Numbered from the whole stretch's first letter, positions 34,440-37,461 are shown. The stretch is 63,187 bases of DNA, filler included, from Dugesia japonica (GCA_001938525.1; 6 parts of 6 records of this genome joined end to end with filler, not necessarily neighbours in it); one strand, 5' to 3'. Notes: generated from the sequence alone by a model not told the origin. Program-made: numbers and translations.

Positions 34440-35006
34440 TTATTCTTGGATAATATTATCAAAAGGAGTCTCTTCCGAGACTAACTTGTAAATAAAAGTA
34501 TTATTAGTTAATGGATCAGTCGAACCACCTATTATAATCTTACCCGTCATTGCAGCTTTAACAAGAGCTTTTTGAATCTTTTCTGATGTTGACCTTGGTT
34601 CAATTTTATTTAAATCATGAATTAAATCAACATAGACTAAATGTCTATCCCTAAGATTTGTTGAAATGTAAGCAATATCATGTTTCAAAGCAACTTGATC
34701 AACTTGATTTATGGGTTCTTCTCCTAGTTTTGGGTTATTATTTTCATCTAATCTAAAATCTAAGCTTGTTCCTGGTCCTGTATTATTATGATTAAGCAAG
34801 TGACGTTCACCAGGATATTTTTCTGTTGTAAATGGTTTCAACAAAGTATTAACTAGACTTAAAGATTGAAGATCACCTCCTTGAGAGCTCACTTCCTGTC
34901 GCTTCGCTCCAGAGACATTAGCTTCCTTACAAGTTTTTGCATGACGTGATTTGTTACTTTTACTTTTAAAGAGATTACATTTTGGACAAAGATATGTCGT
35001 CGTCAT
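34440..35006 (-). CDS. Parvovirus-VP1-like phospholipase A2 protein (adintovirus PLA2X type) with N-terminal C2HC zinc finger
   Basis: HLLNHNNTGPGTSLDFRL..PINQVDQVALKHDIAY..RH; CPKC-x11-H-x3-C; TATAAAAATG start context. Confidence 0.85.
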   Translation of the reverse strand: MTTTYLCPKCNLFKSKSNKSRHAKTCKEANVSGAKRQEVSSQGGDLQSLSLVNTLLKPFTTEKYPGERHLLNHNNTGPGTSLDFRLDENNNPKLGEEPINQVDQVALKHDIAYISTNLRDRHLVYVDLIHDLNKIEPRSTSEKIQKALVKAAMTGKIIIGGSTDPLTNNTFIYKLVSEETPFDNIIQE

Positions 35007-35053
35007 TTTTATAATAAAAACTTCCGTCAGTCATCTAAAATCATTTTACATCA

Positions 35054-36347
35054 TCATCTAATATCATTACTTGTAATGTTTTCTACAAACATGACTTTTC
35101 CAATTAATATTTTAAATTCAACAAGTTTCTCTTGTAATATTATCCAATACAAGTATTCTGTTAATTGTGTATATTTGGTAATGTGACATGTTACATCTAC
35201 ATTGTTTATTGTCAATTTATCATCTTGTGCTGAAGTATCAAAACAAAATATTGGATACCAATTATTCCATTGTTTAATAGATGATTGAGGATGACAATTA
35301 AAAGCTAAACAAATATCGACATAAGTTTGATATGAAAATATTGCATTATTATTTACCTTGTCAAATTCTATTCTAGTATTTAGGTAATATATATTATTTA
35401 ATTGTAATTGTATACTTTTTAAATAATAATTGTATGGTTTATCAATCTTTTTTGTTACATCAGATGGATCAGTAATCTTCTTGGACAAAGTAATATTTTG
35501 ATTAAACAATTTATTATTAACTTCAAAAATAGCAACATTAGTTTTTAAACCAGCAATTACAAATCTTGGTCTTTATGATAAATTTCCCATCTTGATTGAA
35601 AAATTAGTTCCAGCAGAAATTGAATTTTTATTTACATCACGCTCCAAGAATGAAACTTGAATTCCTTTATTGGTTGCAAGTCGCTCCAAATAATTAAATT
35701 CTGTTCTAGGATTTAAAGTCCCTTCTGGTATGTGTAATTACAAACTTTTTATTTCAATCTTTGCCCTGTGATCCTTTTTTCCATAAAATATTAATTCATC
35801 TTGAACATTTCTATTAACATCTAATTGTATGAAAACATTAAACAATAACCTATTATAATTTTCCAAAAACCCAAACAGATTACGTAATGGGTAATAACCT
35901 TCATATGTACTTGTCACTTGCACTCCAGATCATACAAGTAGTCCATTTTTAACATCAGGTATCCATTCATATGCAGATGCACATGTACGTGATGAGTTAT
36001 CAACAAGAATTAAATTTAACATTGTAGAAGCCACTCCAGGGTTTCAATACTTTCTGCAATTGTAGATCCTAATTTTAATCTCATACTACTAAATAAACTT
36101 GGTAACCAATCATTTTCTAAAATAACATCCTTGTTGGCTTCAGTTGTAAATTTAATTTCAATTTTGTAATACAATTTTGCATTTCCAATGTCCAATGGGT
36201 TTGTGTTTTGTAAAGATTAAAATGTTACTTCTTCCGATTTGTTTAAATTAACCATTGAACCTGAGTTTGGAGAAATTTTGAGCAAGTCTATTTTATTTTG
36301 TACATGAGCAAATTTATAATTATAATCCAAATCCATTTTCTAGACAT
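35054..36347 (-). pseudogene. Polinton/adintovirus major capsid protein (second class), near full-length, with stops and frameshifts
   Basis: SPNSGSMVNLN, LENDWLPSLFSSMRLKLG..IE(N)PGVASTMLNL, YPLRNLFGFLENYNRLL, PRFVIAGL, IQLQLNNIYY, PIFCFDTSAQDD..VDV. Confidence 0.82.
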
Positions 36348-36350
36348 TTT

Positions 36351-36992
36351 TTATGATGCAGTTTTTGATTTTGTTTGTTGTATACCAAATCCAGCATAAA
36401 TAGCTTTTATCCCATCTCGATATTCTTTTGGTACATTTTTTTTAAAATTTTTCCTCAACTTCAGCACCCTGTTTTTTAAAATTACCTAAGAGATCAGCTG
36501 CAATTTTATTGAAATCAACTGCTGATAAATGAGATAGACCATCATCTTTGTGTATTGTAAGACTCATCTTTACAAAAGGTAATTCTATATCTGCGGGTTT
36601 TAATGCCAAATTATATTTTTCTTTCAATTCATTGTGTTAATTTCTCTCTTGTTCTAATAATTACCTACTTCTAATAATTCAAGATGTTTTATATACGCTT
36701 GATTTTGAGCATTTAAACAATTAATTAATACATTTTTAGATTCACTCTCACAAAATTTACTAATCAATAGAGTTATGATGGCTTTAAATTTTTCATTGTT
36801 TTCAAACTTGTTGAATTCTGTAGAAACTGTCTTTAATAATATTACCCATCGATTTGCAGTTTCTCTTGTCCAATCATTCTTACAAAAATTTTGAATCTCA
36901 GCAATACTAAATTCTTCTAGAGGAGCGAATTGATTTACAGAATTAAATAATGTACCCAAGGTAAGAATTTCTTTCTTTTTTGATGCAGCCAT
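36351..36992 (-). pseudogene. Unknown ~210-aa Polinton gene directly upstream of the MCP (frameshifted)
   Basis: ORFs 36654-36992 (MAASKKKE..) and 36442-36627 join through a frameshift (LLEQERN*HNELKEKYNL); the last stop abuts the MCP start. Confidence 0.55.
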
Positions 36993-37062
36993 TTTCTTTA
37001 GACAAAATTTAAGGAATGAGAATACAGTACGGTTACGGTAAACTGCTTTTTGTGTATACAAA

Positions 37063-37461
37063 ATGGAAGATGTATTTTATCTAACCTTGTCGGATTATGA
37101 TTTTGTAAATCATTCAATTTCTAGTTTTGCAATGAATTATAACATGAGTGAAAAATCTGTAAGAAAATATTTAAAACTAAATAATATTTCATACAATAGT
37201 AAAAAGAAACCTATAAAACAAAATAGAAATGTAGATGGTACATTTACATCTATAATTAAACGTTTTAATAAACAAGGTACTTTACAGGGAACCTCACAAG
37301 ATACACAAGTTAAAAAATTTAAAAAACAAGTTAATGAACAAGTTAAAGAAGTTAAAGAACAAGTTGAAGAACAAGTTGTAAAGAAAACTAAAAATTTTTA
37401 TTTAATGTCTAATGATGATTTTTTAAAAGATTTGGAAATTAATATTAAAAATATTAAATAA
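37063..37461 (+). CDS. 132-aa basic protein with possible helix-turn-helix
   Basis: Intact ATG ORF; SISSFAMNYNMSEKSVRKYLKLNNI fits HTH spacing; divergent from the capsid block. Confidence 0.55.
   Translation: MEDVFYLTLSDYDFVNHSISSFAMNYNMSEKSVRKYLKLNNISYNSKKKPIKQNRNVDGTFTSIIKRFNKQGTLQGTSQDTQVKKFKKQVNEQVKEVKEQVEEQVVKKTKNFYLMSNDDFLKDLEINIKNIK

Follow-up and report, generated by a model that had tools for sequence, protein, structure and literature searches.

A decayed adintovirus-like virion module in Dugesia japonica and the coupling of phospholipase and integrase in its relatives

Does a compact cluster of virus-like genes in the genome of Dugesia japonica represent an undescribed viral system, or does it belong to a group that is already on record? 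The cluster is part of a window of 63,187 nucleotides (the whole stretch of DNA that was analysed, i.e. six parts of assembly GCA_001938525.1 joined with filler), and the initial annotation had read it as the remnant of a Polinton/adintovirus-type virus with a parvovirus-like phospholipase A2 (PLA2), as the best candidate for an undescribed system and as containing two genes without assignment. The viral nature is borne out by matches above the Pfam cut-offs to PF21738 for the capsid and PF08398 for PLA2. The other two claims have to be given up: relatives with all four genes are present in the supplement of Buck et al. 2024 (PMC11071296), in the accessible part of which the homologues of both small genes in Adinto5616 are labelled Heth and Cah1. 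Because these relatives and names are already there, the module is a decayed member of a known adintovirus group and not an undescribed system. Very probably, the locus as a whole is a dead fragment of an endogenous Alpha-type adintovirus (group 2 Polinton/Maverick) that most likely once encoded a PLA2-integrase precursor, putatively packaged into the virion.

Table 1. Features of the module and of its surroundings, with positions counted from the first letter of the window.
Feature	Position	Strand	Remark
PLA2 gene: zinc-finger/basic peptide, glycine motif, parvovirus-type PLA2, glycine motif; open, 188 codons	34440..35006	-	PF08398
Major capsid protein (hexon), double jelly-roll; ~428 codons, pseudogene	35054..36336	-	PF21738, fold match
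Cah1-like gene; ~213 codons, broken	36351..36992	-	by-eye likeness to Adinto5616_Cah1
Heth-like gene, putative helix-turn-helix (HTH) DNA-binding protein; 132 codons, open	37063..37461	+	divergent from virion genes
Assembly gap, 190 N	34225..34414	.	where an integrase part, if surviving, would be expected from the gene order of relatives
Assembly gap, 90 N	37488..37577	.	closes the module's other side; 18-bp tandem repeat beyond
pPolB fragment, Polinton	31724-32187	+	tblastn with pPolB of L004/L005
pPolB fragment, Polinton	32168-32482	-	tblastn with pPolB of L004/L005
Integrase fragment, Polinton-type	18133-18699		separate from module
Capsid fragment, different from that of the module	13065-13649		

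Capsid and small genes of the module

The entire module is located on one contig of 3,073 bp (34415-37487) with N gaps on both sides, so that links from it to anything else exist at the scaffold level only. Three co-oriented minus-strand genes, separated by 14 bp (from the end of the upstream gene at 36351 to the capsid start at 36336) and 47 bp (from the capsid end at 35054 to the PLA2 start at 35006), are accompanied by a single divergent plus-strand ORF, and all four have A-rich starts, which confirms the tight packing with gaps under 50 bp described for this region. Overall, the window consists of AT-rich animal DNA, in which host genes (RIB43A, a core-2/I-branching enzyme and a histone piece) and many Gypsy relics occur.

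The capsid gene specifies a double jelly-roll protein and is pseudogenised. Its lower end had been placed correctly at 35054, but its start is at 36336, in agreement with its relatives, and not at 36347, which lies in a different frame. The decay stated in the initial annotation consists of four in-frame stops (36217-36219, 35930-35932, 35738-35740 and 35573-35575) and one frame break near 36040-36046. Read with X at the stops, the C-terminal 331 residues match PF21738 with 45.7 bits against a cut-off of 27 (E 6.5e-12), and the PLA2 protein matches PF08398 with 31.9 bits against a cut-off of 23.9 (E 1.6e-7), scores by which chance is excluded for both proteins. A profile search yielded 803 capsid relatives at E<=0.001 and 43 at 1e-30, a word-index search one relative among 948 candidates, and the closest relatives are 39-46% identical across both pieces of the protein.

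The double jelly-roll had been set beforehand as the refuting test for the viral reading. A model of the same 331 residues (X at the stops), built with 101 of 151 relatives, reached a pLDDT of 88, and its best match among 48,161 solved chains was the PBCV-1 capsid (Z 16.6, rmsd 3.3, 275 aligned residues), with Sputnik (Z 15.0) and mavirus (Z 12.8) as further matches. Jelly-roll viruses account for all of the top 16 fold matches, each of them a capsid or scaffold protein (Z 16.6 to 6.8), the next, unrelated row has a Z of 6.0, and 71 matches at E<=0.001 among viral predicted structures are in agreement with the solved chains. The viral reading has thus stood up to this test. By sequence, the capsid profile gave no match to solved chains at E<=1.

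The start codons of the two small genes are 70 bp apart. For the Heth-like protein there was no Pfam match at the cut-off, including the Pfam HTH families; the atlas gave HTH-type leads only, the best of which (0.86) stayed under the 0.9 line, and a single-sequence model with a pLDDT of 49.7, in which two helices (residues 9-39) come near 70, was too poor for a fold search. Compared by eye, it shares 32 of 54 residues, ungapped, with a 138-aa protein of uAdinto15034 and 20 of 50 with Adinto5616_Heth. In the Cah1-like gene the first open frame ends at 36654 and the remainder, to about 36351, continues in other frames (frame breaks near 36660 and 36445, stop at 36637-36639). Its first 112 residues produced no Pfam match and no usable atlas match; below 36666, a stretch of 36 residues is identical to Adinto5616_Cah1 at 18 positions and resembles the 226-aa protein directly ahead of the capsid in uAdinto15034, both as judged by eye. 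Cah1, in the naming of Buck et al., is a predicted alpha-helical capsid-associated protein (PMC11071296). Heth, Cah and the stretch 36340-36660 have no relative in the 11 genomic loci that were fetched for comparison (see below).

The closest published relatives of the module are uAdinto15034 and uAdinto11140, for which the naming key of the same supplement gives 'Dugesia flatworm endogenized' (PMC11071296). In the accessible list of uAdinto15034, pPolB pieces are followed by the 138-aa and 226-aa proteins, a 433-aa capsid ('hypothetical') and a zinc-finger-PLA2-integrase protein ('Integrase'), and this fusion is followed by an ATPase, a pX-like protein, a penton-like protein, adenain and pPolB, strands not being part of the list (PMC11071296). 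Compared by eye, all four window genes have counterparts there in the same list order, the identities being 41 among the first 62 residues of the capsid and 34 among 45 of PLA2, i.e. 59-76% identity over the counted stretches (32/54, 41/62 and 34/45). uAdinto11140 has the same capsid, also broken, and then the same fusion. The genes carry the labels 'hypothetical' and 'Integrase' there, on which the accessible text adds no comment (PMC11071296). Linkage of the genes in other copies, also named as a test in the initial annotation, is thus found in uAdinto15034 for all four genes, and the order capsid - PLA2 - integrase recurs in the fetched loci L002, L004 and L005. There are two differences: both published relatives keep an integrase in frame 3-12 residues past the glycine motif, whereas the contig of the module is without integrase, and genes for ATPase, penton-like protein, protease and pPolB, all absent from that contig, are still present in uAdinto15034.

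The phospholipase gene and its integrase-fused relatives

The first glycine motif of the window PLA2 does not match the adenovirus protease consensus exactly. An N-terminal CxxC..H..C finger precedes it, and the two glycine motifs stand on either side of the enzyme domain. Over residues 1-153 the protein is 59% identical to the fusion protein P0017, and its homology to most relatives stops near 34506-34536, i.e. at the second glycine motif. A quick tree (50 rows, long branches) groups it with P0017 and P0007 (SH-aLRT 99). Against solved chains, a sequence search with PLA2 gave two chance Ras matches only.

With the combination of a double jelly-roll hexon and a parvovirus-like PLA2, the module resembles Alpha adintoviruses, i.e. 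group 2 Maverick-Polintons. As far as the accessible parts of these sources go, PLA2X is characteristic of Alpha adintovirus virion modules (Starrett et al. 2021, PMC8502044), adintoviruses correspond to group 1 and 2 Maverick-Polintons with phospholipase being common in group 2 (10.64898/2026.06.19.733378), and PLA2 of insect Mavericks has been described (PMC5803895) and noted (PMC3671162). Unlike canonical PLA2X, which ends in a pX-like domain, the window PLA2 carries a zinc finger at its N-terminus and lacks pX (no Adeno_PX match at E<=0.1); in its relatives PLA2 is joined to an integrase, and pX is encoded separately (L004; Adeno_PX E 5e-4).

A search for longer forms, in which 7,996 candidates were scored, produced 36 proteins. 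In 29 of these, PF08398 and PF00665 occur in a single frame, connected by linkers of 11-75 residues; the rve domain is absent from the other seven, which are Lottia gene models. Eight relatives of similar length to the window protein were found among 65 candidates: four continue into the start of a Polinton integrase, one ends in the first motif of the integrase, two end at the glycine motif (P0007, P0013) and one ends earlier. Conservation of the two glycine positions extends to 38 and 39 of 44 relatives, respectively. A first scan of genome contigs with the PLA2 alignment gave 29 pattern matches, none of which was confirmed; a scan with the 29 fusions led to the 11 loci, which are Polinton-like contigs inside prokaryotic bins. 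One of them, L007, has its integrase joined to the protease instead, via an LTGG motif. In the accessible part of the Buck et al. supplement, Adinto15303 and Adinto6405 carry the label 'PLA2-Integrase', a label only, without a frameshift being proposed, and this label makes up two of 59 PLA2 labels (PMC11071296).

The window PLA2, which had been taken as a gene by itself, is therefore most likely the 5' part, about the front third, of a PLA2-integrase gene, as judged from the 29 of 36 longer relatives that are fused. From these relatives it would seem that the integrase of such viruses is made as the tail of a virion phospholipase, and the protease-integrase fusion of L007 fits the same virion-carrier logic, with the protease as a second virion-bound carrier.

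The alternative is that PLA2 is a short stand-alone gene with neither pX nor integrase, the 188-codon frame being complete and original. Its frame indeed ends in a stop 27 codons past the glycine motif, the tail carries no integrase signal (the score of the last 109 bases behind PLA2 is reached by 294 of 1500 random stretches), the proteins P0007 and P0013 stop close to the motif as well, and 28 of the first 30 adintovirus PLA2 labels in the supplement listing of Buck et al. are not integrase fusions (PMC11071296). However, the closest relatives, both published (uAdinto11140 and uAdinto15034) and in the database (P0017), are in-frame fusions, linkers as long as those in the 29 fusions could reach into the gap, and stops are frequent in the window contig, all of which makes a stand-alone gene unlikely.

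The short tail of the window PLA2 was also inspected for other signals. It has no in-frame slippery heptamer after the glycine motif, and a 6-bp hairpin in it is not above what a short stretch yields. An apparent trace of the motif with which the integrase starts, in the codons just ahead of the gap, was rejected, as 1969 of 3000 random stretches equal it; with an overhang and one frame change allowed, the same trace was equalled by 294 of 1500 random stretches, versus 26-41 bits at four true junctions.

The history of the locus is best explained as follows. A virus integrated into the germ line of this AT-rich animal and decayed afterwards. Its ancestral gene order was Heth (divergent), Cah - capsid - PLA2-integrase - ATPase plus further virion genes, with the minus-strand genes specifying putative late virion-bound products and perhaps sharing a promoter region with the divergent Heth gene. 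The last gene may have been made as one protein of zinc-finger/basic peptide, PLA2 and integrase, a precursor that would be incorporated into virions and processed at its glycine motifs by the maturation protease of the virus, with packaging and cleavage both putative. The particle would then carry a membrane-breaking PLA2 for entry as well as an integrase for provirus formation, so that integrase would arrive together with the genome, by analogy to the retroviral integrase carried in Gag-Pol. For PLA2, a role in membrane escape as in parvoviruses has been put forward (PMC8502044). The integrase part of the window copy may be lost or hidden in the gap. Against this explanation stand several observations: no integrase remnant is detectable behind the window PLA2; P0007, one of the two proteins nearest to it in the database, stops at the glycine motif, and so does P0013; the first glycine motif departs from the protease consensus; seven of the 36 longer relatives (Lottia) come without an integrase domain, and the window has no ATPase, penton, protease or pX; moreover, the proteins of Buck et al. 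were compared by eye and the quick tree has long branches.

Surroundings and present state of the locus

The pPolB pieces reported near the module are real (tblastn best E 8e-18 and 2e-7, range 8e-18 to 2e-5), but their link to it is unproven: they lie 2-2.7 kb away, with one gap and two dispersed repeats in between, are mutually inverted and short, and cover the catalytic region only, with no OTU part of pPolB seen in them. The long terminal inverted repeat (TIR) also claimed for the vicinity turned out to be a 738-bp inverted repeat with arms at 15999-16699 and 32908-33631; it was rejected as TIR of the module, which it does not enclose, and it shows no Polinton-type motif at its ends. The packaging ATPase, adenain-like protease and penton that the initial annotation proposed to look for are listed in uAdinto15034 (PMC11071296) but have no match anywhere in the window, either with queries for the ATPase (three), penton-like (two) and protease-position (two) proteins or in Pfam scans covering 290 of the 387 window ORFs of at least 45 codons; the pX protein of L004 gave no match in the window either. 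What remains is not an intact mobile Polinton, with capsid and Cah-like genes broken and no inverted repeat enclosing the module.

It could still be argued that the module, the pPolB fragments, the integrase at 18.1-18.7 kb and the inverted repeat derive from one rearranged Polinton, since all these pieces are of Polinton type and lie within 22 kb. We consider this quite unlikely: the module is outside the repeat pair, whose arms are 76.6% identical and devoid of the end motif; between the arms there are six gap sites as well as Gypsy relics and an exon of a host glycosyltransferase; the integrase has no match to P0017 at E<=0.001; and the second, different capsid fragment at 13 kb shows the presence of several families. 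The surroundings look like relics of several such families on a gappy scaffold.

As to its present state, the window PLA2 keeps 33 of the 40 positions that are conserved in at least 80% of 44 relatives; an active-site position that is invariant in 44/44 relatives is not kept, nor are six further conserved positions, and because of the lost invariant position the enzyme is probably dead. The fragment does nothing as a virus today, with capsid and Cah-like genes broken and PLA2 presumably inactive. The open frames of PLA2 and Heth, next to a capsid and a Cah-like gene with several breaks, might suggest that the host has domesticated the two open genes while the capsid decayed. At the break density of the capsid, however, an open frame of 188 codons arises by chance with P about 0.11 and so needs no selection, the conserved positions just mentioned have been lost, and the branch of the window PLA2 in the quick tree is longer than that of P0017 (0.85 vs 0.31), which makes domestication very unlikely. 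That the contig represents a free virus assembled along with the genome, or a contaminant, rather than host DNA is hardly credible, its gap-bounded ends notwithstanding, as four stops plus a frame break in the capsid gene are incompatible with a virus that still replicates and the GC content of the module (0.25-0.28) equals that of the flanks.

Decay is the fate of most endogenous Mavericks (96% of vertebrate loci; PMC8097293, accessible part). Since decay is so common and near relatives are already contained in a published data set, the locus in itself is of minor importance; a literature search on planarian Polintons found nothing specific. What matters more is the pattern of integrase coupling in the relatives.

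Phospholipase-integrase junctions in the relatives

In five of the 11 fetched loci (L001-L005), PLA2 is located directly before the integrase. In all five, the end of PLA2 and the integrase frame share 34-64 nt, and the integrase frame lacks a methionine ahead of its conserved N-terminal motif, its first methionine being found only after the WxADL motif, which holds the first catalytic aspartate of the integrase. In L006 and L009, where no PLA2 is in front, the integrase has its own methionine.

As a candidate -1 site we counted an in-frame X_XXY_YYZ heptamer in the overlap together with a stimulatory structure 5-9 nt downstream. Four of the five integrases are in the -1 frame with an in-frame slippery heptamer, A_AAA_AAC in L002, L004 and L005 and A_AAA_AAA in L003, compared with a background of 58 in 991 stretches of 15 codons. 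In L002, L004 and L005 a 12-bp stem (-21.7 and -17.4 kcal/mol) follows 5 nt downstream of the heptamer, and 0, 0 and 1 of 300 shuffles, respectively, are as stable; L003 has the heptamer only and lacks a strong stem (70 of 300 shuffles as stable). L001 is in the +1 frame, does not have such a site and groups with the in-frame fusions. Over the junction L005 does not differ from L004, and L002 is related to both, which leaves about two or three independent cases. Between the two distinct hairpin sequences all 12 pairs are preserved, one of them with changes on both sides and two with a change on one side; this covariation is equalled in 245 of 500 shuffles and thus carries no statistical weight.

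In retroviral Gag-Pol, integrase is the C-terminal part of a virion precursor from which it is then released by the viral protease, and this precursor is made by in-frame fusion or by -1 frameshifting at an A_AAA_AAC-type site with a downstream stem. The junctions point to a similar mechanism, in that some relatives probably produce their integrase by Gag-Pol-like -1 frameshifting; splicing or a non-AUG start are conceivable alternatives at L001-L005. In contrast to Gag-Pol, the carrier here would be the phospholipase of a jelly-roll dsDNA virus, and there is no homology outside the integrase. We lean towards the wider generalization that, across a broad group of Alpha adintoviruses/Polintons, the integrase lacks its own start and always arises as the C-terminal extension of a virion-bound protein, be it as an in-frame fusion to PLA2 (the lineage of the window module), by -1 frameshifting from the PLA2 frame (L002, L004, L005 and perhaps L003) or as an in-frame fusion to the protease (L007).

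In the accessible parts of their paper, Buck et al. invoke -1 frameshifting for Penton and Hexon-Adenain but make no such proposal for PLA2-integrase (PMC11071296). No discussion of a PLA2-integrase fusion or frameshift was found in the accessible parts of PMC11296320, PMC11131425, PMC11161782, PMC8097293 and 10.64898/2026.10.13.758929 or in literature searches, although genome maps, bioRxiv supplements or subscription journals may contain one.

If true, such coupling would amount to a Gag-Pol-like strategy in a jelly-roll dsDNA virus, by which integrase would be dosed, packaged and released on maturation, and it would imply a true particle stage with integration on entry. A Maverick-Polinton virion has never been observed, according to the accessible text of a recent report (10.64898/2026.06.19.733378); a PLA2-integrase precursor predicts particles that hold integrase. 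At a practical level, gene callers truncate integrases of this kind, because their first methionine comes after the WxADL motif in all five overlap loci.

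A second capsid gene and a broken integrase

Besides the capsid gene of the decayed adintovirus/Polinton module, the window holds the C-terminal piece of a second Polinton-type major capsid gene (13065-13649, plus strand), which was matched in a profile search with an E-value of 3e-7 and found no match in a Pfam search. This second capsid is quite different from that of the module: the host genome harbours more than one Polinton family. A Polinton-type rve integrase at 18133-18699 (plus strand) is broken and begins directly behind a gap.

Joins, repeats and host genes

The five linkers between contigs are all identical: in each, a 12-base all-frame stop word is flanked on either side by 44 N. 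The order of the contigs across these linkers may be artificial. The head-to-head arrangement of the two pPolB (Polinton-type DNA polymerase) fragments is an internal inversion or a mis-join.

On the far side of the small putative helix-turn-helix gene Heth, an 18-bp tandem repeat (37578-37886) adjoins the gap, and beyond this repeat, at approximately 37997-38160, inspection by eye shows a small element whose ends are short inverted sequences. Several Gypsy relics occur elsewhere in the window.

Further features of the window
Feature	Position	Strand	Remark
Dispersed repeat, inverted pair	15999-16699 and 32908-33631		76.6%
Dispersed repeat, direct pair	15716-15930 and 34025-34210		71.7%
Two pPolB fragments	31724-32482	opposite	abutting head to head, directly behind assembly linker
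RIB43A	42063-43111	+	host gene or piece
Core-2/I-branching enzyme	21168-21692	-	host gene or piece
Core histone	58389-58964	-	host gene or piece
Class II tRNA synthetase	62576-62881	-	piece
hAT transposase	62035-62241	+	piece
Linkers	12871, 22837, 31622, 43138, 53700		

Related loci outside the window

Among the fetched Polinton-like loci, L004 and L005 are, over their whole length, near-complete Alpha-type Polintons with protease, ATPase, capsid, PLA2, integrase, pPolB-like and pX (adenovirus-pX-like) genes. Both were found within prokaryotic genome bins, where they are most likely binning contaminants. In L007 (9506-10912, plus strand), an LTGG motif joins an adenain-type protease in frame to integrase and chromodomain. 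The integrase of L006 (1-3619) has its own start and adjoins a large helicase-like gene (AAA_19) in place of pPolB.
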